A DNA stretch of 64,000 bases from an uncultured bacterium. Its GTDB lineage: Bacteria; Cyanobacteriota; Vampirovibrionia; Gastranaerophilales; Gastranaerophilaceae. Under the pieces are notes generated by a model that was not told the origin of the DNA, ran no database searches, and was given only the letters and a program-made list of their open reading frames with translations. Positions 1,783-59,300 of this stretch are shown here, one piece after another. The number at the start of each line of letters is the position of its first letter. Position 1 is the first letter of the stretch. The stretch lies in the NCBI GenBank assembly GCA_963839525.1, contig CAWIVJ010000013.1:3183-67182 (forward strand), in the 5' to 3' direction. The position numbers and the translations under genes are program-made.

Positions 1783-3396
1783 ATGAATGGAATTTATATG
1801 CCAAATTTTTATTCTGGGTTTTCAGCGCCGGATATTTCAAGTTATTTAAACATGATGAATAGTTTTTCAAGTATTCAAACACCTCCGACTTATAATTTAC
1901 AATTGCCGGATATTTCAAGTTATTTAAACATGATGAATAGTTTTAGTTTTTCAGGTAATCAAATACCAATGCCGGATTATTCAAGTGTAAATAGAATTTT
2001 AAAAGAATCAAATGAAGCCAGAAGAAAACAAGAAGAAGAAGCTAAAAAAGCCGAAGAAGAAAGAATTAAAAATGAAAAAATTGCACAAGAAGAAGAATTA
2101 AAGCAAGCAATAGCAAAAGAAATTAAACAAATAAACGCTTTAAATGAAGCAAAAGCTTCGCTGGAAGGCAAAAAAGAATCTCAACCGAAGAAATTAAACT
2201 TTTTGGAAAAAATCGGTTATGGACTGAAAGGCTTATGTAAAAATGTTACAAATCTCTGGACAGATAAAGAAGGTAAATTCAGTTGGGCAAAACTAGGAAC
2301 TTCAGTTGCTATTGGCGCAGGAGTTGTAGCTTTAGATGTTATTACTTGTGGCGCATTAACACCTGTTTTAATAGGAGCAGGCGTAGTTCTTGGCGGATAT
2401 CAAACAATAAAAGGTGTATCGGAAGCATCTAAAGCCAAAACCAGAGAAGAAGAAATAAAAGCTTTTGAAGATATAGGAGAAGGAGCAGGAGCTCTTGCTT
2501 TATCTATTGTTAGCTTAAGAAGTGTTAACGCTGCAAAAAATGCCTCAAGAGCAGCAAAAGCAGAAACTCTTGCCACAACATTAATAGGTGAATTGAAAAA
2601 CATAAAAAATATTAAAGGTATTAATCTACAGTCTTTTAAAACTATTATAAACACATTAAAAAATGCAGGAGGAAATAAAAAAATCATTAATACCGCATTG
2701 AAAGAAATAAAAATTCTATCAAAGACAAAAGGTATTAAACTTCCTAAATCCGATAAAATTGTTCTTGAAACTATTAATAACTTAGCAGGAAAAGGTCTTC
2801 ATAATGTTAAGAATGCTATGGCCAATCCTTTACTTAAAGAAAGTAAAATCTTAACTGACTTAGAAGGAGTTTGCACTAAATTAGACGATATAGAAGGCTT
2901 AGGCTCTATAATTGCAAGATTAAAAAATGCAACTAACAGAAGTGAAGCTTTAAAGATTTTAAAAGAAGCAGGAAAATTAGCTAAAACTTCTGCTAAAATT
3001 GGAAAGAATGAATTAGAATTATTGTTAAGCCAACTTAAAAGACAGGTAATACAAGATAACAGCTTTGGAACACTTATAAAATCTAATTTATCTAAAGAAA
3101 ATCTGGTAAATATGGCAGTTACTTCAGGTGATAAATTTAAGAACTATCCTTACTTAAGTACTCTGCCAAGACTTTCAGTATCAGAAGTTGCAGCAGTTAA
3201 AATATCTAGTCATATTTCAGACGAAGTTGAAGCAGCAAAAGAAGCTGAAAGACTGGCAAAAGAAGTTTTAATGGACGAAATAGATGAAAAAATTAAAATA
3301 GAAGTAAAAGAATTAGCAAAACTACTTGATATAGAAATAAAAGACAAAACGTTTGAAGAAATTCAAGAAGAAATAGAATTAAAAATAGCAGCTTAA
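1783..3396 (+). CDS. hypothetical membrane-associated coiled-coil protein
   Basis: 537-aa ORF with GGAGG about 8 nt upstream of the ATG. It has an N-terminal duplicated PDISSYLNMMNSFS motif, a charged EEEAKKAEEE helix, a hydrophobic Gly/Ala/Val segment (TSVAIGAGVVALDVITCGALTPVLIGAGVVLGG), and a strong terminator after the stop. No family recognised. Confidence 0.6.
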   Translation: MNGIYMPNFYSGFSAPDISSYLNMMNSFSSIQTPPTYNLQLPDISSYLNMMNSFSFSGNQIPMPDYSSVNRILKESNEARRKQEEEAKKAEEERIKNEKIAQEEELKQAIAKEIKQINALNEAKASLEGKKESQPKKLNFLEKIGYGLKGLCKNVTNLWTDKEGKFSWAKLGTSVAIGAGVVALDVITCGALTPVLIGAGVVLGGYQTIKGVSEASKAKTREEEIKAFEDIGEGAGALALSIVSLRSVNAAKNASRAAKAETLATTLIGELKNIKNIKGINLQSFKTIINTLKNAGGNKKIINTALKEIKILSKTKGIKLPKSDKIVLETINNLAGKGLHNVKNAMANPLLKESKILTDLEGVCTKLDDIEGLGSIIARLKNATNRSEALKILKEAGKLAKTSAKIGKNELELLLSQLKRQVIQDNSFGTLIKSNLSKENLVNMAVTSGDKFKNYPYLSTLPRLSVSEVAAVKISSHISDEVEAAKEAERLAKEVLMDEIDEKIKIEVKELAKLLDIEIKDKTFEEIQEEIELKIAA

Positions 3397-6243: not shown

Positions 6244-9183
6244 TTAAGATTTAAAAATCTCTTTTAGATATTTACCTGTATAAGATTTGGGGTTTTTGCT
6301 GACTTTTTTTGGAGTACCTGTAGTTACAATTTCACCGCCCATGTTTCCGCCTTCGGGACCTAAATCAATTATGTAATCGGCAACTTTTATCAAATCTAAG
6401 TTGTGTTCAATTATAAGAATCGTGTTTCCGCTGTTGGCAAGCTGCTGTAAAATTTTAATTAATTTATCTAAATCATGCCAGTGAAGACCAACTGAAGGTT
6501 CATCTAATAAATAAAGAGTTTTACCTGTTGCACGCTTGTTCAATTCCGATGCAAGCTTAATTCTTTGAGCTTCACCGCCTGAAAGAGTAGTTGCGCTCTG
6601 CCCGAGTTTTATATAATCCAAGCCTACATCATTTAAGGTTTTAAGCTTATTTTTAATTGATGGGATATTTTCAAAAAATTCTAATGCTTCTTTTACACTC
6701 ATATCAAGCACATCTGATATGGTTTTCCCCTTGTATTTTACTTCCAAAGTCTCTCTGTTATAGCGTTTTCCCTTGCAAACACCACATTTTACATAAACAT
6801 CCGATAAAAAATTCATTTCAATTTTTAAAACGCCATCGCCTTTACAAGCTTCGCAGCGTCCGCCTTTTACGTTAAAGCTGAATCTTCCGGGTTTATAGCC
6901 TCTGATTTTTGCTTCGTTTGTACGGGAAAACAAATCACGAATATGAGTGAAAACATCCGTATAAGTTGCAGGATTTGAACGTGGAGTTCTGCCAATTGGT
7001 GACTGGTCGATATCAATAACCTTATCAATCTTTTCAAATCCTAAAATTTCGTCAATTCCCTGAGGTTTTGGTTTGTTTTTGCGGAGTTTATGCAATGCAT
7101 ATTCATAAATCAAATCTTGCATAAGCGTTGATTTACCTGAACCCGAAACGCCTGTTAAAACATTAATTTTTCCAAGCGGAATTTCAACATCGATATTTTT
7201 TAAGTTGTTTAAGCGGGCATTTTTTACTTGCAAAAAATGCCCGCTTCCTTCACGAATTTCTTTCGGAACAGGTATAAATTTTTCTCCTTTTAAATATTTT
7301 CCCGTAATAGAATTTTTAGAAGAAATTATGTTCTCAATTGAGCCGGAAGCAACTATCTCACCTCCGTTTATACCTGCTTTAGGTCCGATATCTACAATAT
7401 AATCAGCGCTCCTGATTGTTTCTTCGTCATGCTCAACTACAATTAATGTATTGCCAAGATTTCTTAGCTTAATAAGCGTCTGAATTAAACGGGCATTATC
7501 TCTTTGATGCAATCCTATCGAAGGTTCATCCAAAACATAAAGTACACCTGAAAGGCCGCTTCCTATTTGTGTTGCAAGTCTTATTCTTTGAGCTTCTCCG
7601 CCTGATAAAGTTCCTGCCATTCTGGCAAGACTGAGATAATTTAATCCGACATCAAGTAAAAATTTTAGTCTTGCCCTTATTTCATCTAAAATTTGTTTTG
7701 CAATTTGCATTTGATAATCGGTTAATTCTAGAAATAATTCTGAGATAAAATCAAAAGCTTCGTCAATAGATAAAAGAGTAAATTCGTAAATATTAAGTCC
7801 TTTAGTTGGAATCTTCTTTACATCATCCTGAACTTGTTTCAGGATCTTTCTGGTTTGCGCATGCTGATTAGATGCTGAAACGAGTTCAGCATGACAATTT
7901 TTATTTGTTTCAGAACCTATTCTTACCGCAAGCGGGAAAGGTTTTAATCTCGCTCCTTTACAAGTTTTACAAGGAGTTGTTACCATATATTTTTGAATTT
8001 CCTCACGCCAATATTCGCAGCCTGTTTCATTATAACGTTTTTCAAGATAAGGAATCACCCCGACATATCTTGTATAGTTAGTTTGATAACGCTTTGTGCC
8101 AAATTGTTTAACGTTTATTTTAATAACATCATCGTTTCCGTATAAGATAAGGTCTTGTTGTTCTTTTGAAAGTTTTTTAAAAGGTGCGTTTATATCAATG
8201 CCGAAATTTTGGCAAACAGATTTTAATAAGTCAGAATAATAAGTAGTGGTGCTTTTAGACCAAGGATAAATTGCTCCGTCAGCTAAAGATTTGTTTTTAT
8301 CCGGAACAATTAAATCAGGGGACAAAATACTGTCAACACCAAGTCCAGAACAGTGATCACAAGCTCCATAAGGACTGTTAAAACTAAATATTCTGGGTGC
8401 TAATTCTTCAAAACATAGATTGCATTTTGCACAGGATAATTTTTCGCTGAAAATGGTTTCTTCTCCATCTTTGTCAACTATAATAATTCCATCGGCTTTT
8501 TTAAGGGCAATTTGTGTGCTATCCGCAATTCTCGATTTAGCTTCTTCTTTAACTACAATTCTGTCTACAACAACATGAATTGTATGTTTTAGGTTCTTTT
8601 CCAATTTAATTTCGTCTTCGTCAAGATTATAAATTATACCGTCAACTTTCACCCTTACAAAGCCCTCTTGGCGTAATTCTTCAAATGTTGACGCAAATTC
8701 ACCTTTTTTCCCCCGGGCTATAGGCGCTAAAATCTGAATTCTGCTTCCTTCAGGAAGATGTATTATTTTATCAACAATTTCATCAATTGTCTGAGGTTTA
8801 ATTTCATTTCCGCATTTAGGGCAATAAGGTGTTCCTACACGTGCATAAAGCAACCTTAAATAATCATAAATCTCAGTAACCGTCCCAACAGTTGAACGAG
8901 GATTGTTGCTTGTTGATTTTTGGTCGATTGAAATAGCAGGTGAAAGTCCGTCAATATGTTCAACATCGGGTTTATCCATTTGACCCAAAAACTGACGGGC
9001 ATAAGTTGAAAGGCTTTCTACGTAACGTCTTTGCCCTTCGGCAAAAATAGTATCAAAAGCCAGTGAACTTTTCCCGGAGCCCGAAACCCCTGTAAATACT
9101 ATAAGCTCATTTTTAGGCAGCTCAAGCGAAATGTTCTTTAAATTATGCTCCTTCGCCCCTGTTATGACAATTTTTTCATTCAT
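6244..9183 (-). CDS. uvrA: excinuclease ABC subunit A
   Basis: 979 aa with two ABC ATPase modules (GVSGSGKSS / [17 protein letters not shown] twice), zinc-module CxxC pairs, and end-to-end UvrA-like sequence. Confidence 0.97.
7822..7895. repeat. REP/MITE-like double-hairpin element, copy A, in-frame inside uvrA
   Basis: Hairpins ATCCTGAA-CTTGT-TTCAGGAT (7825-7845) and ATGCTGAA-ACGAG-TTCAGCAT (7872-7892) are inverted copies of each other. Translated as [27 protein letters not shown]. Confidence 0.7.
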
Positions 9184-9293
9184 AATTTACATTATTGCAT
9201 GTAAAAAGTAAACGGTAAATAGTAAATAGTTCTTTAAACTTTATTTAAAATTTACCATTAACTTATTAAATTTACGGAAAAAGTTCCACTTAC

Positions 9294-9363
9294 GTTACCC
9301 TGAATTTATTTCAGGGTCGCAAAGCCTCTCGCTAATGCTATTCTGAAACGAGTTCAGAATGAC
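9294..9363. repeat. REP/MITE-like double-hairpin element, copy B (intergenic)
   Basis: Arms GTTACCCTGAATTTATTTCAGGGTC and CTATTCTGAAACGAGTTCAGAATGAC. The element is nested inside a perfect 14-bp inverted repeat, TTTACGGAAAAAGT (9271-9284) / ACTTTTTCCGTAAA (9380-9393). Confidence 0.7.
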
Positions 9364-9394
9364 GTTTGCCTGTTTTAAGACTTTTTCCGTAAAC

Positions 9395-9836: not shown

Positions 9837-10077
9837 AGTATATTCTCCATTCAGCTATCAATAATAATTAAAATATAAAAAAGATAAAAAATTGACATGA
9901 AAAAATATGTAAAATCCTTATACTTTAGGTTGAAAGCTTTAATTGACAAGGAAAGCAGCTCTAAAAAATTAAAGTTTACATTTTTTAATTATAATAATTG
10001 TTAAATTTTTTGTTTGTAGTATTATAATTATTGAGGTTACACTAGTCTGATAGGTTTTACCCTAGTTCTTTAGTAAC

Positions 10078-10102
10078 GTCTTGCTGAATTTATTTCAGCA
10101 TC
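10078..10102. repeat. solo arm of the REP/MITE-like element in the rpsB leader region
   Basis: GTCTTGCTGAATTTATTTCAGCATC, a single hairpin about 77 nt upstream of the rpsB ATG. Confidence 0.5.
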
Positions 10103-10178
10103 TCAAGGTTTATTGACCTGACGATTAGAATGGGACTATGTAGCTGGATATTACATTTAAAACATAAGGAGAAAACCG

Positions 10179-19550: not shown

Positions 19551-20899
<1,349 letters not shown>

Positions 20900-21184
20900 T
20901 TATTCAATCCCGAACACATCTTTTGCGATTTGTTGCGCTGTTTCGGACGTTATAGGCTTGTAAGAACTTTTGTTTTCTATTTTCTCAACTGGCTTTTCGC
21001 CTATAGTGTCACGTATTGCGTTAAATGCTTGCACATCACCTTTTAAAGCCTTTTCAAAGAGTGCTAAACATAACTTTTGCTGATTTGTTTGTCCTTTATC
21101 ACCTTTAAGTTCAAGCAGAGCTTTCAGGGCATCTTTGAGTTTCTTTTTTTCACGTCTTGCTTCGCCTGATTTCTGGCCGCCCAA
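20900..21184 (-). CDS. phage terminase small-subunit-like protein (N-terminus uncertain; TTG start or truncated)
   Basis: GGQKSGEARREKKK ... ALKGDVQAFNAIRDTIGEKP resembles small terminase proteins from memory. The same frame is open upstream (NLKPLNTRTKDEQREIAS) without an ATG. Confidence 0.4.
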   Translation of the reverse strand: MGGQKSGEARREKKKLKDALKALLELKGDKGQTNQQKLCLALFEKALKGDVQAFNAIRDTIGEKPVEKIENKSSYKPITSETAQQIAKDVFGIE

Positions 21185-21331
21185 AGATGCAATTTCTCTT
21201 TGTTCATCCTTTGTTCTTGTATTTAAGGGTTTTAGATTTTAGTTGTTCATGGTTTTTCACCTGCCTTTACTGGAATATAATTAATCACTATTGGTTCCAT
21301 TTTTATTGTATTCATTATTTTTTTAACTTCC

Positions 21332-21565
21332 TCAGTGCTTATATTTAATTCTGAAGCAAGTCTTACCATATTCTGAATTCATTATTTCTTGCAACTTCCT
21401 CTCTGTCAATTTTTTTTGAGCAGTTTTTTCTTCGTTGTTAATTGGATAACTAACAGGGGAGTTTGTAAATTGAAGAAAGGGGGCTTGATACGATTTCCAA
21501 AAATCGTTCACCTTGTTTACTATTACTTGCTTTTCTAACCTTTCAAGTTTTGATTTAATATTCAT
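21332..21565 (-). CDS. hypothetical phage protein (77 aa)
   Basis: ATG preceded by AAAGGAGAGG directly after the upstream stop (operon packing). Confidence 0.4.
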   Translation of the reverse strand: MNIKSKLERLEKQVIVNKVNDFWKSYQAPFLQFTNSPVSYPINNEEKTAQKKLTERKLQEIMNSEYGKTCFRIKYKH

Positions 21566-21577
21566 AATACCTCTCCT

Positions 21578-22254
21578 TTAAAATAATAAAATATCTAAAT
21601 CATCGAACCAGCACTGCCCACCGTAATCTCCAAACCCTTGACAGCCTAAGTACACAATTAAACTTGTACTTAATGCCGTTGTATCAGTCATTGTATATGT
21701 GTGGGCAGGAGATGCAGGTTTTACTCCTGTTGTATTTACAGTAACTCCTACTTGCAAACCTCTTTTTTGAACAAAAACATAGTATTTAGAAGTACGTGAA
21801 AAATTATATGGATAACCTAATAGTGAATTATTATTTAAAATAGATAATGTTCCACCAGTGTTTACATCAGTGTGTATTCTAAATTCCAGTCCATATAAGG
21901 CACTAAAAAGCCCCGGGCTTCCTGTGCTTCCTCCAATAGATAATGCTACTCTTTCTGTGTTATATGGGAGAGCATCAGATGAAAGTTGGAAGCTAAATTT
22001 AAGGTCAAAACTACGGTTTATGTTGTAACTTTCTTTGAACTTTTAATTTAATAAGATTTATTGTATCCTGTTCCATAAGTATTACAATAAACCCTGCTTA
22101 CTGTTATCAGAGCCTTTCTATAAGAAAACCAATCCCAGTTATTATAAATATCGTACCAAACATTATTTGCGGGCGGAGTGTAGCTTGTACTAAAGTTTTC
22201 CGTAAAAGGCGTATAACCTCCGCAAAGTGATAATAATCTTTTATTATCGCTCAT
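21578..22254 (-). pseudogene. frameshifted phage structural-like gene (beta-rich, possibly LamG/jelly-roll-like)
   Basis: ORF 22048..22254 ends at TAA. A 157-codon start-less ORF (KFKESYNINRSFDLKFSFQL...GGQCWFDDLDILLF*) continues in another frame down to 21578. Confidence 0.45.
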
Positions 22255-22326
22255 TATGCTATTCCCTCTTCTTGTTGTAGTAATCCTAAATTAAAAATTG
22301 CTTTTTTGATATAATACTGAACGCAC

Positions 22327-23055
22327 TCAAACTCCCCCTTTAGGCTGTTTTTTTGATATGTCGTCTTGTTCACACTGATTGCAACCCATTAAACAAAGTT
22401 CGGATGCCTGATGTAAACTATGCGCTAAATTCTCTAAATATAACTCTTTGTAATCCTCATCGGTTTTAATTTCTTTTAGTTCTATACTCTGCTTTTTCAG
22501 CTTTTTTCTGGTCTGTTCGTCCGCAACTACAATAGTGGCCGTTCTACCGTCAATTTCTTGCTTATAGGTAAATAATTGTAACTCATTGTCTTTGTTCATT
22601 TTGTTTTCCTTTCTTTCTAAAATAGTTCCTATTGTGGAAATTGAAACTCTGACATAAGGTGTTTCAGAGTAAAATTTGTTTATTATTAATGTTGAAATTT
22701 GTTTGTCATCCGGGTATGCAATTCCGTTCAGTGCATCCAAAATGTTTTTTGAAATATTATCACAGTCGGGCTTTATAGTAGGTCTTATGGCCCCTGAGAG
22801 AGCGTTATTTCTTTTAACCTTTGAAAATGACTTAGGTATCTCAAAATAAACGTCTATTTGAGCCGTAATAGCTTTGTCGATAAATTGAGTAGGAATATAG
22901 TCGGGGTATTCGCTGCAAAAAGATTGTTTTACCCAGTTTGCATAATTAACCATTTCAGGCGGAGTGTATTTTTTCATAAATCCACCCACATTAGCGAATT
23001 TTACGCTCTGCTTTGCCTGCACCTTACCCGGTATAATAAAATTTAATTCTTCCAA
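22327..23055 (-). CDS. rusA: RusA-family Holliday junction resolvase with a C-terminal extension of about 100 aa (TTG start)
   Basis: IKPDCDNISKNILDALNGIAYPDDKQI core motif. AAAGGAGA 8 nt upstream of the TTG. Confidence 0.75.
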   Translation of the reverse strand: MEELNFIIPGKVQAKQSVKFANVGGFMKKYTPPEMVNYANWVKQSFCSEYPDYIPTQFIDKAITAQIDVYFEIPKSFSKVKRNNALSGAIRPTIKPDCDNISKNILDALNGIAYPDDKQISTLIINKFYSETPYVRVSISTIGTILERKENKMNKDNELQLFTYKQEIDGRTATIVVADEQTRKKLKKQSIELKEIKTDEDYKELYLENLAHSLHQASELCLMGCNQCEQDDISKKQPKGGV

Positions 23056-23068
23056 CTTTCAATCTCCT

Positions 23069-23885
23069 TTATTTTCTTTTTAATCTATAATCATCACCTG
23101 TACATTTAATCAATGTGAAATTACCACATAGGCGACTTATAAGGGCTTTGCCCCCACTGTCAAATTGAGTTTCAAGATAATCAATAGTATTTTCGGTGGT
23201 TATTACAGTCGGTTTTTATTGTTATGCTTTGAATCCAAAATTAAATATAATTGTTCAAGCACCCATGAAGTTTTATTTTCTTTGCCTAAATCGTTAAGGA
23301 CAAGCAATCCTGTATTTATATAAGGTGTTGTATCAAAGTCTTTACGCATCTGATTCATCATTGTTGTACTGCTTATAAAGACAGTTGGGATTTGTTCTTT
23401 TATAGCTTCCTTTGCAATTGCAATCGCTAAATGAGTTTTCCCAGTTCCGACATTACCATAACCGGCGATTATAAGATTTTTACCATTTTTAACTTTGTCT
23501 ATGTCTTTAATATAGGTTATTGCTTGATTTTTTGCCTTGCTTAATAATCCCGTAAGCGGTTTAAAGTTTTCAAAAGAATTCTCATGCCGGTTAAACGGAA
23601 TATAAGAGTTATTTAATAAACGTTCTGCATAACAAACGGCTTTTTCGTTTTCTCGGTTAGAAATAAACCTTGAACTTACGTTTTTTCTATCGCTCTTAAA
23701 ATACTTTTTCTTTCCGAATCAGATTGTGCAGTTAAATATTTATTTGTAAAATACTCCTCTAATTCATCCGCTTTATCGGAATATGAATTAACCAATCTTA
23801 CTAAGTTCGGGGCTTGCTCTGAAAGAGATTTAACATCTTTCCAAATAAGCTTATTTAGTGATATATAATGTTCTTTAGTCTGCAT
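23069..23885 (-). pseudogene. DnaC/IstB-like helicase-loader ATPase, two frameshifts at A-runs
   Basis: Middle frame carries Walker A GYGNVGTGKTHLA and Walker B LLVLNDLG. The frame changes at GAAAAAACG (about 23680) and AATAAAAACC (about 23215). Confidence 0.7.
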
Positions 23886-23887
23886 AA

Positions 23888-24619
23888 TTACTCCTTACTA
23901 TATTGTTCATAATCGCTCTTAAAACTTGCACCCGTTAGGCATGAAAGGTTTTTGTTTGTACTATTAGAAAACTGTTTAGCATTAACCTCCCATTTTCTTA
24001 TAGCAGCTTGCTAGTCTTTCATTTTACTTTTACCAACCATCCAACCATTGCAATCATAATGATTAATGAATGCTTCGGGGCTTATATTATTTTTTCTTTC
24101 AATGCAATATTGTTTTACTTCTTCTAAAGAAGGTTTTTGAAAAGATTTTTTTTGTGTCTTATTATCATTTACATTATCATTTACATTATCATTTACATTT
24201 ACATTATCATTTACATTTACATTGGGGGTTGTTTTGGGGTTATTTTGGGGTTGTTTTTTTGTAGCATTATTATTCCCAACAGGTGCACCACCCAAGTTGC
24301 CATAATTAGCACCTTTACAACCATTTATATACTTTTTATTGTTAGCCTCAATTTGAGGGCGGATTAGAGCGAACAGATTTTTTTGTATTCCTTCTAGCTC
24401 CAATTCTTCAAAATCTAAAGATTTTCTTATAATTGCATCAAAAACGGCAAGTCTATCTTTATCCAATAAGCCCTCTAAAGCTTCTGCATAGCTCCGATAA
24501 AAAACAAAACTATCCCGTTTGTTTTCTAAAACATTGAATTTTTGCCGTTTTAATGGTACAATATCAGTATGGATATTTACTGCCTCTGAATCAGGGGCTT
24601 TTTTATTGCTTATTGTCAT
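23888..24619 (-). pseudogene. phage replication-associated protein with an internal in-frame TAG (24011-24013)
   Basis: After KMKD-TAG the same frame continues QAAIRKWEVNAKQF...YSKE and ends at TAA 23888-23890, with its final codons forming the SD (AAGGAG) of the next gene. Also contains an NVNVNDN repeat. Confidence 0.55.
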
Positions 24620-26489: not shown

Positions 26490-27764
26490 ATGGCAAACAT
26501 ACAATCAAGAAAAAACAAAGAAGGCAAAATTATTTCTTATTCTATACGTGTTCACAAGGGCAGAGATGCTTTCGGTAAGCAATTAAAGCCTTATGTAATG
26601 ACTTGGGTTGTACCCGAAGGCTGGACTAAAAGCCGCATAGAAAAGGAAGTACAGGCACAAGCTGTTATATTTGAGCAAAAATGTAAAGAGGGGATTATTG
26701 CCGATAACAAGCAAACCTTTGAACGATATGCCGACTATGTTATCAAGCTAAAAGAACGCACAGGCGTAAAGCACAGAACTATCTCTTATATAAAGATTTG
26801 CTTAAGCGTATTAATCCTGCAATCGGTCATATAAAACTTGCGGACCTGCGTCCGCAACATCTTAATGCTTTTTATGAACAACTTGCAGGGGATAAAATGA
26901 ATAAAAAAACAGGTAAAAAGCTGAGTAACAAGACAATTATAGAACATCACAGGCTCATAAGAACTATTTTAGCGGAAGCTGAAAAGGAACTACTTATTAT
27001 GTACAATTCCGCTTCAAAAGCCTCACCGCCAAAGCTAGAGCGTAAAGAAGCCAATCATTTTGAGATAGAAGATATAGAAAACATACTTTTTATGCAAGCA
27101 AAGAGCCTTTAAAATGGCAAGTAGCTTTAAATCTTCTTATATTCACAGGTTGCAGACGTGGTGAAATTATGGGTTTAAAATGGAACAAAGTAGATTTTAA
27201 AAACAATCAATTGCTGTAGCAACAATTTATTTATTCTAAAGAAAAGGATATTATGAAGATACTCCAAAAACAGAGCAATCAAAAAGGATTATAAAATTAC
27301 CGGCAGGCGTAATGGAACTTTTAAAAACCTATAAAAAACAATACAATGAAAATCGCCTTGCATTGGGTAGTAAGTGGCAAAATAAAAACTTTGTATTTAC
27401 ACAAGAAAATGGAAGCCCCAATTTTCCTGATACTTTGACTGATTATTGCAAGGAGTTCAGCATAAAATATAACAAATTGATTAATAAAACAAATGAAGAA
27501 AACAAAAATAAACAGGGATTTGAAAAACTTAAACTATTACCTCATATAAACCCCCATGCTTTCAGGCATACACAGGCAAGTTTGTTATTCTTTAGCGGTG
27601 CAGACTGTACAACCATAAGCAAACGTTTAGGGCACTCCAAAGTATCGACTACAACGGATATTTATAGCCATCTTATGCAAAAGGCTGATGAAACTGCATC
27701 AGACACGCTCGCTAACTTGCTTTTAAATAAAGCAAATAATGAAAAAGAAGCTGCTGAAAATTAG
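26490..27764 (+). pseudogene. int: tyrosine recombinase (phage integrase), disrupted about four times
   Basis: The N-terminal arm-binding-like domain, TGCRRGE (catalytic Arg), HAFRHT and RLGHSKVSTTTDIYSH (catalytic Tyr) lie in three different frames. Frameshifts near 26780, 27100 and 27250, plus an in-frame TAG at 27227-27229. Confidence 0.85.
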
Positions 27765-27874
27765 GCTATTTTTAATCAAAATTTAAGGGCTTGTTGAATT
27801 AAAGTTGAATTATTAGACATTTTCCGAAAAAAAGAGCTTTTAGGATATATCTAAAGCTCTTTATTTTAAGTATT

Positions 27875-27933
27875 TACGCCCGGAGGGATTCGAACCCCCG
27901 ACGGGAGCACGCTGCCAGCTGAGCTACGGGCGC
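27875..27933 (-). pseudogene. truncated tRNA-Arg-like gene (59 nt): acceptor stem, D-arm start and T-arm present, anticodon arm missing, no CCA
   Basis: The reverse complement reads GCGCCCG TA GCTC AGCTGGCA GCGTGCTCCC GTCGGGGGTTCGAATCCCTCCGGGCGT A. About 17-20 nt are missing relative to a normal tRNA. Confidence 0.6.
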
Positions 27934-28255
27934 TTATATATTCAATTTTCATCCGCTTTCTCAGCTGTATAGAGCGTTAATCTAACTTTCTTTGAACTTT
28001 TACTTGCGTAAAAGATTCAATGTGCCAGCTGAGCTACGGGCGCTTATATATTCAATTTTCATCCGCTTTCTCAGCTGTATAGAGCGTTAATCTAACTTTC
28101 TTTGAACTTTTACTTGCGTAAAAGATTCAATGTGCCAGCTGAGCTACGGGCGCTTATATATTCAATTTTCATCCGTTTTCTCAGCTGTATAGAGCGTTAA
28201 TCTAACTTTCTTTGAACTTTTACTTGCGTAAAAGATTCAATGGGCCAGCTGAGCT
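27914..28255. repeat. 110-bp tandem repeat, 3 full copies plus a 12-nt partial; each copy starts with tRNA nt 1-20 and includes 90 bp of tRNA upstream flank
   Basis: Units start at 27914, 28024, 28134 and 28244. Copies 1 and 2 are identical; copy 3 has 2 substitutions. Confidence 0.95.
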
Positions 28256-43655: not shown

Positions 43656-43661
43656 TGTTAT

Positions 43662-43735
43662 GTCATGCCGAATTTATTTCAGCATCTATCCATCTTACTA
43701 AACTGATAAAATACTGAAAACAATTTCAGGATAGC
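43662..43735. repeat. REP/MITE-like double-hairpin element, copy D (degenerate second arm)
   Basis: GTCATGCCGAATTTATTTCAGCATC ... ATACTGAAAACAATTTCAGGATAGC in the 142-bp gap before recA. Confidence 0.55.
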
Positions 43736-43797
43736 AAAATTAAAGTTAAATATCTATAAATTAAAAAATTTACAAAATTGGGAAAAGAGGCAAAATT

Positions 43798-51655: not shown

Positions 51656-51666
51656 CTCTATTATCC

Positions 51667-51791
51667 GTCATCCTGAATTTGTTTGACTGCTTTTGCCGTT
51701 GAGCTTGTGAAACGTGGCAAAATGCTTAGTTTTCTACAGGATCTATCCAGCATGCAAAGCTGGTGAGATGCTGAAATAAATTCAGCATGAC
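51667..51791. repeat. REP/MITE-like element, copy E (expanded to 125 bp with nested hairpins)
   Basis: Terminal arms GTCATCCTGAATTTGTTTGAC and GATGCTGAAATAAATTCAGCATGAC. Internal hairpins TTTTGCC..GGCAAAA and CCAGC-ATGCAAA-GCTGG. It starts 3 nt after the oxidase stop codon. Confidence 0.6.
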
Positions 51792-51793
51792 AA

Positions 51794-53305: not shown

Positions 53306-56300
53306 TTATTCATCAACGTAGGAAGTTATTTTTTCTATACTTTTACCCAATTTAACAAGCTGTTTATCAATATTATCAACTTTTCTAGTTAATTTTGTAT
53401 CTACACCTGTTTCAGGAAGTTCGACCTTGCCTAAAACCTCTTGAACAAGAGATTTTAAATCAGTTTCTTTTGAAGGTTTTGCTTTAGTTAATTTTTCTAT
53501 TTTTACTTCAAGAGATTTAATTTTTTCTTCCTGCCTGTCAAATTTTTTGAAGAATTTATCCAAAAGTTTTTCAATATCGGTTGTTTTTACCATAGATTGT
53601 TTTATGTAGTTAATATTTTCATCAGCCTTATCTATCCATTCTGCGAGATACATAAAGGACTGATTAAAAATTTTGTCTGACTGAACGTTTGATAATAAAA
53701 CGTTATTAATATTATCAAGTCTTTTTTCAATTTTACCGATAGGTTCTTTATTGTCTAAATATTTTACCCTTTTTTCAAATTGATAAATAATATTTTTTAA
53801 ATCTTCTAAATTATTTTTTAAAACAGCATGTGATTCATCAGAATTTAATAAAATTTTATTAGTTCTGGTGCTTATACTTGTTATATCTTCACTTATTTTA
53901 TCCAAACCGCTAAAATCTCCGGTAGCGGCAGCAACAGTGCCTTTTGATTCTGAAAGTTCTTTCAAAATTAGTCTGACTTTTGCAATATCGGATTCAATAT
54001 CCTGCAAAGTATAAGAATAATCGGATTCTTTTTCAGAAGATTTGCTTGTGAGTTGGATGCATTTTTTAATTTCTTCTGTTTTTTCACTTACAAAATCTTT
54101 AATGTCCTCTGATTCGGATTCAAAAGAAATTTGATTAAAGAAATTTATAAGCCCTTCCCAGAGATCTTCTTTAAATAAAGTTAATTCGGAGTTTAACTCT
54201 TCTTTAATATTTTGTTCTCCCGGGGCAACATTTTTTTGCTTAAAATTCTCTATTTTTTCTTCAAAATCTTTGAGAGAATCTTGAATCTCTGATTTTATAT
54301 TTGCCAAAGTGCTTAATTCTGTCAAATTTTCTGTTTTTTCAATGCTTTCAAGTTTATTTATAAGAGATTCCTGAGAACTGAGCATTTGCTTAATGTCTTT
54401 GATATTTTCTTCAATTTCCGGGTTGGAATCTACTTTTAAAGAATCAAGTTTTTGATTTATTGTCTCTAATTCCTGTTTGACATTTTCTAAACCTTCTCCT
54501 GTCTCTGAAACAGTAGAAAGAGGAGAAACTTGAGTTTCAGGCAAAGAATCGAGTTTTTGGCTTATGGCTTCGATTTTTTCTGCTATTTCGTTTTTAGAGT
54601 TTTCTATTACTTCGTTAAAATCAAGATTTTTAAATTGCTCTTCGATTTTTTCAAGGTTTTCATCAAAATTAATTTGGTCAAGTTTATTTTGAATAGAACT
54701 TATTTCTTCTTGAATGTTAACTAAATTAGCAGATAACTCCATGCTTGAATTCAAACTAAGATCAACATAACTTTCTTTTAGTTCTGCTAAAGCTGATTTA
54801 ATATCTCCCAGTTTAATATTGACTTCTTTTCCCTGATTATCAAAATTAAATTCAAATTTATCAAGCTTTTCATTAATATCGTCATTTATAGATGTTTTCA
54901 AATTTTCCAAATGACATTCAATTTCTTCCGTTTTGCCAAGAAGATCTTTTATTTCTTGATTATCTTCTATTTTAGATAAAATCTTATTTTGTGCATCTTT
55001 AAATAAGTCATCAATATAGTTTTCGATTCCTTTATTGAAATCTTTTAGGTCCTCTTTAACACTTATTGACTTTATAGAATCTTCAATATTATCCGAAATT
55101 TCTAAAAACTTATCAAAAACTTCTGTTTTTAATTCTTCTAAACTTTGAGAAATTTCCTGTTTATTATCAAAAACTTCCATAAAAGATTTCAAGCTATCAA
55201 TACTATCATCAACTTTTTCATAAAAATTAAGTTTGATATCAGAAAGTAAAGATTGTGTTGATGTTTTATAATTTTCTTCAGACAAATTAATTTTATCTTC
55301 AAGACTCTCCGAAAGCGTTTTAATAGCGGAGTTTAATTCTTCAATTTTTTCAGAATTTTCTTTTATTGGCTTTTTTTCTTCTGAAAAAGAATCTAAAACT
55401 TCTTTCACGATTTTAATGTTTTCTTCAAGCTCTTTTAAAATTGTTGATTCTGTTTTCTCATGTGTTTCAGATATTTTGTCTAAAATAAAGGTTTTTATAT
55501 CATTTTGAGCTTGAAAAATATCAATTAAAAGCTCCGACTTATCTTTGTCTTTTAATTCTTCTATTTTACTTAAAATTGTTACCTTAACTTTATCTTGTTC
55601 TTGTAAAAAACCTTCTAAAGCGTCTGGTTTTATCTCACTTTTTAATTCTTCTATCTTGTCTAAAATAACTGTCTTTATTTTATCTTGCTCTTGAATAATA
55701 TCTTCTAAAGCATCCGGTTTTGTCTCATACTTTAGCTCATCTATTTTATCTAAAATAATTTCTTTTATTTCATTCTGTACTTGAATAATACTTTCGAAGT
55801 CTTTTAATTCTTCTATTTTTTCTAGAATATCTATTTTTATCTCGCTTTGAGCCTGAAGAATATTTTCAAGATTTTCAGATTTATTTTCATCTTTTAACTC
55901 ATCTATTTTATCTAAGATAACCGTTTTTATATCATTTTGAGCTTGAAAAATATCAATTAAAAGGTCCGATTTATCTTTGTCTTTTAATTCTTCTATTTTA
56001 CTTAAAATTGTTACCTTAACTTTATCTTGTTCTTGTAAAAAACCTTCTAAAGCATCCGGCTTTATTTCATCTTTTAATTCTTCTATTTTATCTAAAATAA
56101 GTGTTTTTATTTTATCTTGCTCTTGAATAATATCTTCTAAGGCATCCGGGTTTGTTTCATATTTTAGCTCATCTATTTTATCTAAAATAACTGTTTTTAT
56201 ATCATTTTGAGCTTGAAAAATATCAATTAAAAGATCTGACTTATCTTCGTTTTTTAATTCTTCTATTTTGCCTAAAATAAATGTTTTGACTTCATTTTGC

Positions 56301-59300
56301 ATTTGAAGAAGATTATCCAAAAAGTCAGGTTTTGTTTCGTCTTTTAATTCTTGTATTTTATCTAAAATAACTGTTTTTATTTCATTTTGGGTTTGAATAA
56401 TATCATCTAAAACATTCGGCTTTAATTCACCTTCAATTTTTAATTCTTCTATTTTGTTTAAAAGGACTGTTTTTACTTCATTTTGCGTTTGAAGAATTTC
56501 TTCTAAAGTATCGGTTTCTCTTTCATCCTTTAATTCTTTTAGCTTACTTAAAATAATTGTTTTTAATCTGTCTTGGGATTGAAGAATATTATCTCCAAAA
56601 ACATTTATTTTTTCTGAAATATCCTCATTTCCTGATGAAAAAAGTTCTTGTGTTGAAGAAGAAAGTTCTTCTGATAAAGAATTAATATTTTCTTTTATTC
56701 CATTTAAAAGTGTTATTTTTGTATTATCTTGTGTCTGGCTTATATTGTCTTCGAGAGAACTAATTTTCTCTAAAATTTCTTCTTTTAACTCCAAAGAAAC
56801 CTCTTTTGTTGAAGAAGAAAGTTCTTCTGATAAAGAATTAAGGTTTTCTTTTATTTTGTTTAAAATACCCGTTTTAGTATTATATTGAGATTGTTCCAAT
56901 TTTTCAGAAATAATACTTTTTAAGTCATCTTGCGATTGGGTTAAAGTATCTTCAAAAATATTCATTTTTTCTGAAAGCTCTTCCTTGACTCCTGAAAAAA
57001 TTTCTTGCGAAGAAGCTGAAAAATCTTTTGCAACAGCTTCAATATCTTCTTTTATTTCATATATTGCAGTACTTGCTTCACTTTGAGAAAAGGTTATTTT
57101 ATCTAAAACAGCATCTTTTGCTTCACCTTGTGCTTGAAGTATTTTATTTACAATACCGGTTGTTGATTTGTTTTGAGACTCTGAAATTTTATCTAAAATT
57201 AAATCTCTTGCTTCATCTTGCGCCTGAAGTAAAACATCTTCAGAAGTATTAACTCTTTCCAGTAACTCTTCTTTCGCTCCGGTAACGATTTCTTGAGTTG
57301 CCACCGAAGAATAATTTAATTCTTCAAGTCTATCGAGAACCGTTCCTAAAATACTGTTAATTGAAGTTATATTTTCAACTTTTTCATTTAAAATAGATTT
57401 TAACTCCACAATATCTTTTGTATTATCTGCATAAACCTTATAAATAATTTTGTCTAATTTAACACTTAAATTTTCAAAATCTTGCGAAAGTTTTTCAAAT
57501 AATTCCTCACTTTCTTTCTTCATATCATCATTAATTGAAGATTTAATTGAAAAGTAAGAATTGTTAATTTGATTTTTAATATCAATAAAAGAATCTTCAA
57601 AGTTTATTTCGGTAACTTTATTAACAGATTCACTGACAGAAATAAGTTTAGTAATAATTTCATTTGTTTTTGCGGTTAAAATCGTTATTAAATCAGTAGT
57701 TGTAAGATTTAACTGCATTTTTACTGCTTCAGTTTTTTCTCCGAGATCCTCAATAATTTCATTCAAAGTTCCGGAAGTAAAGCTTTTATATTCTTTTAAT
57801 TCATTGGAAACAATTTCAAATTTATCCTCTAATGTACTTAAGATACTTTGTAAAGAGTCATTATTTTTTATCGAAAAAGTTTCTTCCAATTGTGAAATAT
57901 CTATTGTAATGCTATTAAATTTTTGTTCTAGGCTGAAAGCTAAATCTTTAAGAGCAGGATCTTCTTTAAGTTTAGTTAAACCCTCTGTCATTGAAGTTAT
58001 TTTTGTTTTTATTTCAAACATTTCCTTAAAGGAATTATCAAGTTTTAAGTCGCTATCTTGCGTGATTTGCCGTGTAAATTCAAAATAATCTGTAAGCTTA
58101 TTTTGTAAATCCAGCAAAGTTAAATTGTAGTTTTCACCATATTGATTCACTACATCTTCAATATTTTCAATAACGTCATTAATTTGATTACTTACATTTT
58201 CACCAATTTCTTGATTTGATTCTCTTAAATCCTCTTTTATTGTGTTTAAATTTACTTTTAATGCAGTAATTTCATACAAAACCTCTTCTTTAAAAGGAGC
58301 GTCTTTTGAGAAAATTCCATTTGCCAGATTTTGAATTTTTTCTCCTACTTCAAGAATATTTTTTGAATTTTCTTCTATTAAAACTTTTTTTTCATTTTCA
58401 AAAGTAGCTTGATTTTCTTTAATTATTTCAGGCAAATTTGAAATTGAATTTTGCATTTCTAAAAAATAACCCTTTAAATCTTCATTAGAGCCTTTTTTTG
58501 CCTCTTCGATTTTATGGTTCAAATTTTGAATGTGCAAAGAAATAGTTTCAAAATCTACCTGCGCATTTTCTTTTAAAAATTCTTTGTGCTCATCAAACTC
58601 TTTTGATAAATCTTCAAAAAGTGAAATTATTTTTACAAGATTAGATTGACTTCTAATGTCAATATTTTCTTCAGCTACACTTAATTTTTGAGAAAACTCT
58701 TCAATATTTGCCTTTAATGACAGTCTTTCGTATTTAGAATTTTGTTCCAAATTTGCACTCACGGATTGAGTCATCTGAGTTAATTCTTCGACAGAAGATT
58801 TTAGTTCTGCAAAATTAACTTCATAACCTCTTGTTAAAACATCCTGTAAAGAGTTTAATTTTAAAGATAATCCGCCCATGATTTCTTTTATTTCAGAAGT
58901 ATTTTCTGTGTAGTTCTGCCCTAATGAATCTTTTACTGTAATTACCTCTTTGGAAAAATCTTTAATAATTGATAATAAATTTGTAAAATACTCTTGAGAG
59001 CCAAGGCTTAAATCTTTTTTGACCTCTTCTATTTTTCTTGCAATATCTTCAAATCCACTGGATACATTTTGTAAATTTTGCAAGGATGATTCGCTTAAAT
59101 TCTCTTTTACTGTCAAAACTTCCTGAAAAACTTTTTCTGCTTCGGAAAGCATAGTTTCTAAATTTCCGTTAGAATTTTGAATCATGACATTGCCGACATT
59201 AACGGCTTCTTCTTTTAAATTTTGCAATTTATCATCAATTACTGCCAAATTTTCAGTATTTTCAATATGCAATGATTTTTTTAATGAAAAAACATTCTCA

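Follow-up and report, generated by a model that had tools for sequence, protein, structure and literature searches.

A CGTC-2-like dimer of REP sequences in frame within the uvrA gene of a Gastranaerophilaceae bacterium

How does a palindromic repeat come to lie inside the reading frame of a DNA repair gene, and why does it stay there? The question is raised by uvrA in a stretch of 64,000 nucleotides, which we call the window (assembly GCA_963839525.1, contig CAWIVJ010000013.1, positions 3,183 to 67,182). It comes from an uncultured bacterium of the family Gastranaerophilaceae, a melainabacterium of the gut. An earlier note, made from the letters of this DNA, had described an element of the repetitive extragenic palindromic (REP) or miniature inverted-repeat transposable element (MITE) type in frame within uvrA, with other copies between genes, and had concluded that the uvrA peptide derives from the repeat. 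Our analysis supports this conclusion. Very probably a dimer of REPs of family CGTC-2, together with 38 nt of flanking sequence, was inserted once in frame in uvrA and is translated as a loop of the protein.

The gene itself is in good order. Its open reading frame (ORF) is open along the full length, as had been claimed, and its translation is as stated. In a phmmer search of the PDB the product matches the UvrA entries 2r6f, 9gxk and 3zqj with E=0, and Pfam places the domains UvrA_inter at residues 131-238 and UvrA_DNA-bind at 289-398. The conserved positions are invariant across 38 orthologues; that UvrA stays under purifying selection is part of the explanation given above. HMMER aligns residues 3-424 of the window protein with residues 22-443 of the insert-free reference, UvrA of G. 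stearothermophilus (2r6f), and residues 462-977 with 443-956. The alignment breaks between 424 and 462 with no loss of reference residues, so the window protein has about 38 extra residues. We also used the 120 closest UvrA orthologues (78-86% identity by BLASTP), one of which is named Candidatus Gastranaerophilaceae: 113 of them lack the insert, and so do the solved UvrA structures. No homologous insert was found at this position in orthologues from genomes free of the repeat. The gap among orthologues is thus as clean as had been foreseen, although its size is 38 aa or 114 nt and not 25-30 aa or 74 nt. At the DNA level the empty alleles read ...AVKI followed directly by KGKNIYEF..., whereas the filled ones read ...AVRI, then 114 nt of insert and then KGLNIYEF.... 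MAFFT sets the limits of the insert at G423-T460 and HMMER at S424-K461; the junction is ambiguous by 1-3 codons.

The insert is made of a 76-nt REP dimer (7821-7896) with 21 nt on its 5' side and 17 nt on its 3' side, neither of which is canonical REP. Its two hairpins, ATCCTGAA-CTTGT-TTCAGGAT at 7825-7845 and ATGCTGAA-ACGAG-TTCAGCAT at 7872-7892, have fully complementary stems (8/8) and loops of 5 nt. They had been described as near-identical inverted copies, and indeed their 25-nt arms complement each other at 88%. On the coding strand REP unit 1 codes for CHAELVSAS and REP unit 2 for ILKQVQDD. The tag of the second unit has decayed to CATC in the window, but it is CGTC in the orthologues P0005, P0010 and P0093. 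In the window copy only, 17 of 22 positions of the 5' inner flank agree with a REP half when counted by eye; the flank may be a decayed third REP half, which is not established. In the fold of minimum free energy, taken as single-stranded RNA or DNA, REP 1 pairs with REP 2 and the dimer becomes one long hairpin (dG -27.6 kcal/mol, z = -3.9). Just one of the six reading frames of the dimer is open and that one is the frame used by uvrA, which argues that the segment is translated as an excursion of 38 residues.

The site of this excursion is a beta-turn in signature domain I of UvrA, 10 residues past the second CxxC of Zn2 (C405-C408) and 25 residues past the Pfam UvrA_DNA-bind domain, which is the DNA-binding insertion domain. 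In the AlphaFold (AF2) model the predicted local distance difference test score (pLDDT) falls below 50 for exactly residues 424-460, between a strand (419-422) and a helix (465-469), and a short helix is the only structure predicted within the insert. This fits a flexible excursion from the turn. The 38 residues are probably disordered and at the surface.

The same repeat is found elsewhere in the window. The core CTGAA-N5-TTCAG occurs 6 times in the 64 kb, where 0.05 occurrences are expected, and the extended 25-mer with at most 3 mismatches has 8 matches, against 0 expected from 100 shuffles. There are five REP loci (Table 1). The uvrA copy is the only genic one and the other four, all of which had been noticed before, are intergenic. 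The intergenic copies of the window and of related genomes are sharply bounded dimers of 72-76 bp, CGTC...GACG. Each has a unit CGTC-AT[G/C/T]CTGAA-N5-TTCAG[C/G/A]AT-C, a spacer of 20-24 nt and then the inverted copy, which ends in GACG. Outside the tags there is no conserved sequence.

Table 1. Position of uvrA, of the parts of its insert and of the intergenic REP dimers in the window
Feature	Position	Strand	Basis
uvrA, 979 aa, intact ORF which carries the insert	6244..9183	-	ORF list, translation, PDB phmmer, Pfam
Full in-frame insert with respect to empty alleles, 114 nt = 38 aa	~7801..7917	-	HMMER, orthologue and empty/filled DNA alignment, AF2
5' inner flank of the insert, GGTTCTGAAACAAATAAAAAT, not canonical REP	7897..7917	-	Intergenic dimers share nothing outside the tags; partial direct (D1) and inverted (I3) matches
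REP unit 1 (first in coding orientation)	7871..7896	-	Tag TGTC, stem ATGCTGAA, loop CTCGT, stem TTCAGCAT, tail C
Spacer of 24 nt between both REPs, TAATCAGCATGCGCAAACCAGAAA, ends partly complementary	7847..7870	-	Sequence comparison
REP unit 2 (inverted)	7821..7846	+	Degenerate tag CATC, stem ATCCTGAA, loop CTTGT, stem TTCAGGAT, tail C
3' inner flank of the insert, TAAAGAAGATTCCAACT, not REP, hypervariable among relatives	7804..7820	-	Comparison of filled alleles
Head-to-head REP dimer, intergenic, between uvrA and the DUF1284 gene	9293..9364	.	Stops in 6/6 frames
Decayed dimer upstream of rpsB; first REP (10077-10102) intact, second short of ~27 nt	10077..10133	+	Orthologous to the full dimer of L007, 9766-9837
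Intergenic REP dimer, second unit degenerate	43661..43736	.	Repeat scan and flank comparison
Intergenic REP dimer; its first REP is interrupted by a nested 52-nt segment with a hairpin (51685-51736)	51666..51792	.	Sequence comparison

The intergenic dimers have some features of their own. The one upstream of rpsB had been taken for a solo arm at 10078. It is a dimer whose second REP is half deleted in the window, which explains the apparent single arm; in a related genome (L007) the full dimer persists at the orthologous intergenic site. A block GGTTACACTAGTCTGATAGG-TTT-CCCTAGTT, at about 10036-10075 of the window, is also kept upstream of rpsB (ribosomal protein S2) in three genomes (window, L007 and L008), the uvrA genes of which have a DNA identity of about 76-78%. 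It may be a leader or a regulatory element of rpsB. Rfam has no family for this block and none for the uvrA insert. All six frames of the dimer at 43.7 kb contain stops. The copy at 51.7 kb is long because of the 52-nt segment nested in its first REP (TTTTGCC...GGCAAAA); this segment is unique within the window and was rejected as a second repeat family. In the only open frame of its six, this copy gives the pseudo-peptide CHAEFISAS...KQIQDD, exactly as had been reported. A GC-rich mini-hairpin of 21 nt (CCCGCC...GGCGGG) is found inside the REP 2 loop of the uvrA insert in two relatives (L003 and L008). The REP loops may themselves be targets of insertion. We also considered the DUF1284 ORF, which lies between the REPs at 9.3 and 10.1 kb, as a REPtron and rejected it, as it neighbours uvrA also in relatives without those REPs.

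To which family does the repeat belong? CGTC-tagged REPs have been described with a terminal CGTC tag (variants TGTC and CCTC), which is an unpaired tetranucleotide at one end (Di Nocera et al. 2013, BMC Genomics 14:522, PMC3733652). Their stem starts with AT and has 8 bp in families 1 and 2, and the loop has 5 nt in families 2-4. They are mostly found as head-to-head dimers with spacers of 20-100 bp; heterodimers are common in CGTC-2, and most tails fit CCA (PMC3733652). Intragenic copies in frame encode about 25 aa (PMC3733652). In our case 6 of the 8 window units, and nearly all units of the relatives, have CGTC or TGTC in front of the stem. The stem and loop, AT[G/C/T]CTGAA-N5-TTCAG[C/G/A]AT with 0-1 mismatch, correspond to an 8-bp stem starting with AT and a 5-nt loop. 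In all dimers the tags lie outside, the spacers have 20-24 nt and the stems of the two partners differ (G and C variants). The tail reads C and then T or G (ATC-T, ATC-G), as compared with the CCA consensus. Judged by the written definition of tag, stem, loop and arrangement, the element is most probably a head-to-head dimer of family CGTC-2, REPIN-like and non-autonomous. An indirect support for the family is that a CGTC-2 REP of Sulfurovum (Additional file 3, PMC3733652) encodes RHSELVSGS, nearly identical to CHAELVSAS in the window, and that a Sulfurovaceae genome has the exact 26-mer of the repeat.

Of the name REP/MITE-like given in the earlier note, the first part holds and the second does not. 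We rejected a MITE: nothing is kept beyond the CGTC...GACG tags, the REPs are the only terminal inverted repeats, and the five dimer sites show no consistent target duplication. Target-site duplications of the AAAGG type or of the TA type were also rejected, as none is consistent across these sites.

The exact 26-mer of the repeat is present in at least 120 loci (one genome per species) from many phyla. The matches listed include Bacteroidota, sphingomonads, a Rickettsia endosymbiont, a Sulfurovaceae metagenome-assembled genome (MAG), Treponema, Patescibacteria, Armatimonadota, Melioribacteraceae and another Gastranaerophilaceae MAG. In other phyla it is also found within ORFs: a class I tRNA synthetase (in the Rickettsia endosymbiont), a glycosyltransferase, a TPR/PMT protein and FecR. 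Several records labelled 'Heliobacteriaceae bacterium' or 'Brachyspira sp.', including CAG:484 (L046, L073, P0150, P0160, P0163), have the same REP 26-mer or a PPDK with 87% identity; they are probably mislabelled Gastranaerophilales genomes.

The insert is present at the uvrA site in seven orthologues: P0001, P0002, P0003, P0005, P0010, P0093 and, in decayed form, P0095. By sequence comparison the filled allele is not private to the window genome, but appears as one allele common to at least seven Gastranaerophilaceae lineages. The non-decayed filled alleles share the orientation, the order of the heterodimer, the type of spacer and an alignable 5' inner flank. Next to the insert, residue 463 is L in all seven filled alleles, while it is K in 112 of the 113 empty ones and E in the remaining one. 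The common architecture and the linked K463L point to a single origin of the insert. As L463 is absent from all 113 empty alleles, we rejected precise excision as their source.

In a neighbour-joining tree built from insert-free columns the filled alleles are scattered and not monophyletic. The closest empty relatives are very similar: P0082 has 96% identity with filled P0005, several empty alleles have 94% with P0003, and P0068 has 93% with P0002. When the gene is scanned in windows of 30 codons, the excess of filled-filled over filled-empty similarity has its gene-wide maximum at the insert site. The excess spans only about 15 codons, which does not support a large recombination tract. The patchy distribution would most likely come from short-patch recombination or from allele sorting among co-occurring lineages; repeated de novo insertion is an unlikely cause of the scatter.

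What is conserved in the insert is its DNA. We compared six filled alleles and the four closest of them, whose values follow in brackets. Third positions of invariant codons of the four-fold type have 41% identity, which means saturation (42%). Hairpin 1 reaches 84% (98%) and hairpin 2 82% (82%), the figure for the six being lowered by a nested insertion in two alleles. The spacer has 69% (76%), the 5' inner flank 64% (83%) and the 3' inner flank 45% (63%), the value of 45% being near neutral. Hairpins with 82-98% identity next to synonymous sites with 41% indicate that they are kept as a nucleotide sequence and not as a peptide. Hairpin 1 of P0093 differs from the others by paired changes, which turn it into the canonical variant ACCCTGAA-TTTAT-TTCAGGGT, also found at 9294 in the window. 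Homogenisation against other copies and selection on structure would account for this equally well, and the two are not separable here.

UvrA is a frequent host of inserts. The UvrB-interaction domain has a second hot-spot at its C-terminal edge, past residue ~237-240, with inserts of 8-57 aa in 19 of the 120 orthologues (among P0068-P0119; 10740-10830 in L007). One of these, in P0104/L007, is a complete canonical CGTC-2 dimer, inserted independently in frame and read in a different frame. In it the canonical ...GCATGACG is changed to ...GCAAGACG, a change which abolishes a TGA stop at the cost of one base pair of the stem. Several other inserts at this hot-spot resemble the translated sequence of GC-rich repeats from other families (SPLAGEGRISERGTSSR, PHPNPLPQGGR). 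The spacer peptide GRISER is common to many of them and to the canonical dimer of L007. Overall, internal inserts of at least 8 aa are found in 24 of 120 UvrA orthologues and in 0 of 120 of PPDK (Fisher's exact p = 3e-8). PPDK, a length-matched enzyme from the same window, is a single control gene and is more conserved than UvrA; the excess is suggestive, not decisive. It agrees with the published finding that intragenic REPs are concentrated in uvrABCD, recBCD and polymerase genes (PMC3733652).

Outside UvrA, an exhaustive HMMER search of the 38-aa insert against 1.84 billion representatives gave 8 weak matches, of which only P0248 is informative. This flavoprotein-like protein of 374 aa has near its N-terminus NCHAELDSASNQHSKTGKILNQVQDD, almost the same dimer-plus-spacer peptide as in uvrA, and a second insert of REP type in its middle (VLLNSFQH...SQTSSG). 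Most of the remaining matches are probably short spurious ORF calls across REP clusters. A word-index search with a 40-aa dimer-peptide query found no match.

From these results a history of the locus may be proposed. A segment of 114 nt, the 76-nt dimer and 38 nt of flank which is not REP, would have entered the beta-turn of signature domain I once and in frame. The filled allele would then have spread or persisted in at least seven Gastranaerophilaceae lineages with the linked K463L, presumably as a neutral loop. Its hairpins would have stayed nearly unchanged by the constraint on REPs as such (recognition by a mobilising or binding machinery, structure of RNA or DNA) or by homogenisation against other copies. 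Several points weigh against this history. Simple transposition of a REP dimer does not account for the 38 nt of inner flank. CGTC REPs have no dedicated transposase (PMC3733652) and none is known to mobilise them; ten small ORFs of the 64-kb window were compared with Pfam and none matched the Y1 (IS200/RAYT-type) transposase family. The flanks give a weak signal of recombination (+0.02, about 2.8 standard deviations, ~15 codons). Hairpin 1 of P0093, which is a different canonical variant, could be the result of replacement or re-insertion and not of pure descent. Translation of the insert and folding of the loop are inferred from sequence and model, and the AlphaFold model, with a mean pLDDT of 68, is only moderate and has other segments below 50, so that the disordered surface loop is not firm.

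Other explanations should be weighed against this single insertion. The hairpins could be kept for a function in cis, for instance as an mRNA structure which tunes the stability or translation of uvrA or as a site in DNA or RNA which binds a factor specific for REPs; the element would then be selected and not a tolerated passenger. We give this a small but real chance. It would account for the high identity of the hairpins at all codon positions beside a neutral 3' flank, for the changes on both sides of the stem in P0093 which keep pairing, for the stable fold of the dimer and for the persistence of an intergenic dimer at an orthologous site between species. However, most close orthologues do without the insert and it is decaying in P0095 and P0010. 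The P0093 variant is a canonical member of the family and could equally have arisen by gene conversion or replacement, and the conservation of the REP across phyla ties the constraint to the repeat family and not to uvrA. If instead the same site had been hit repeatedly, by site-specific targeting or homing, the seven filled alleles would be parallel insertions. Their scatter in the UvrA tree, where each has closer empty relatives, would agree with it, as would the different variant in P0093 and the many different inserts at the second hot-spot. The idea is quite improbable: the filled alleles share their architecture down to an alignable 5' flank which is not REP and which intergenic dimers do not have, four of them have exactly 38 aa, and all have the linked substitution at residue 463, which no empty allele has.

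The peptide might also be a module exapted for a new property of UvrA, such as an altered interaction with DNA or UvrB. The site is near Zn2 and the DNA-binding insertion domain, and inserts are more frequent in UvrA than in PPDK. A modification of repair proteins by REP tags has also been put forward as a speculation by Di Nocera et al. (PMC3733652). Yet the conservation is that of nucleotides, including third positions, and not of the peptide; the part of the peptide which is not REP is hypervariable, the AF2 confidence is low and most lineages have no insert. At the second hot-spot the canonical dimer of P0104/L007 gives an unrelated peptide. Exaptation is thus very remote. An error of assembly or binning, or a uvrA which is decaying as a pseudogene, has a chance which is practically nil. 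The source is a metagenome-assembled genome, but an identical protein is found on a contig assembled independently with another pipeline (L001, Logan ERR11523667) and in NCBI and ENA, and six further alleles come from other samples; the intact ORF and its invariant conserved positions speak against a pseudogene. We keep the single in-frame insertion of a REP dimer as the preferred reading.

A more speculative idea is that REP/REPIN populations and nucleotide-excision repair are functionally linked, so that the hairpins in uvrA would not be passive; we consider it unlikely. If it were true, the loops of UvrA might be preferred landing sites, with REPs mobilised on repair or replication intermediates. 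Alternatively, REP segments might be retained to tune UvrA, through an mRNA hairpin or a loop beside the DNA-binding domain, in such a way that REP cruciforms are spared. Such a link would explain the conservation of the hairpin DNA, the presence of two hot-spots in uvrA and the difference in inserts with PPDK. It would also fit the published intragenic enrichment of REPs in repair and polymerase genes.

Some other features of the window deserve mention. Three tandem repeats of 110 nt (27913-28255, 98-100% identical) adjoin a fragment of a phage integrase (27312-27764), and a 23-nt piece is found again at 22026. The region at 20-24 kb has a GC content of 0.26 and an AT skew of -0.43, with long ORFs overlapping on both strands at 19651-21046. 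Positions 20000-24000 and 27312-28255 may be an integrated element. An ORF of 2441 aa (53306-60631) contains about a dozen tandem repeats of 90 nt (30 aa) with 60-89% identity at 55331-57239. Finally, a perfect direct repeat of 40 nt (1827-1866 and 1905-1944, 78 nt apart) is found in an ORF of 537 aa (1783-3396), for which Pfam gives no match.

Neither the phenomenon nor the repeat superfamily is new to the literature, and uvrA too has been published as a host; we have a new example in a lineage which was not listed before. In the literature searched no paper joins Melainabacteria with palindromic repeats. What is modestly new is the host lineage, the filled, empty and decayed alleles on the scale of a population, the conservation of the hairpin DNA within a gene and the two hot-spots of uvrA. 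The range of CGTC-type REPs thereby comes to include the non-photosynthetic lineage which is sister to Cyanobacteria. With 120 close orthologues available from metagenomes, the different states of one site can be seen side by side, and the natural allele pairs of this clade are well suited for a direct experimental test. Hairpins nearly unchanged beside saturated synonymous sites, a copy which lost a stop codon at the price of a stem pair, and two hot-spots in UvrA against none in PPDK all bear on an old question: are REPs junk, parasites or functional elements, and why are repair genes repeatedly their hosts?

Among known systems the closest is the CGTC-2 family itself. The window element has the same tag, the 8-bp AT stem and the 5-nt loop, and it forms head-to-head heterodimers with spacers of 20-24 nt whose ends are complementary. 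It also agrees with the family in the lack of an adjacent transposase, in the intragenic copies in frame and in the use of uvrA as a host gene in other species. It differs by its tail, C or CT, by the 38 nt of the uvrA insert which are not REP, and by its host, since the five phyla listed for CGTC REPs do not include the lineage of the Gastranaerophilaceae (Melainabacteria/Vampirovibrionia). The REPINs (Bertels and Rainey 2011, PMC3116915) are also inverted REPs with a short spacer which fold into one hairpin; they are dispersed, mostly intergenic and kept at orthologous sites between species. However, they are defined by GTAG-type REPs and a single-copy REP-associated tyrosine transposase (RAYT; PMC3116915). 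No such enzyme is known for CGTC REPs and no RAYT gene was seen in the 64-kb window.

The Rickettsia palindromic elements (RPEs; Ogata et al. 2000, as reviewed in PMC10969869) are likewise described there as palindromic, translated and in frame in housekeeping genes. The parallel drawn in the earlier note is closer than an analogy, as RPE-4 of R. conorii is CGTC-4 and RPE-6 is CGTC-1 (PMC3733652). The relation is at the level of the superfamily only: the host of our element is a Gastranaerophilaceae MAG, outside the described RPE families of Rickettsia. The classical RPE-1 has about 150 bp and its own conserved peptide, while we have a 76-nt REP dimer in a different phylum. The view of the earlier note, that records of such cases from outside Rickettsia are rare, is out of date. 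Tagged REPs are known in 8 phyla, with intragenic GTAG and CGTC copies in several species, and a uvrA which carries REPs has been published for Thioalkalivibrio and for both uvrA genes of Opitutus terrae (PMC3733652). These genes also have REP dimers in frame, sometimes at two sites per gene (PMC3733652). The inserts of O. terrae are GTAG-19 REPs (Additional file 3, PMC3733652), unlike the CGTC-2 type found here. In comparison with both, the Gastranaerophilaceae offer data on a population scale, two hot-spots in the gene and a polymorphism of presence and absence among close relatives.

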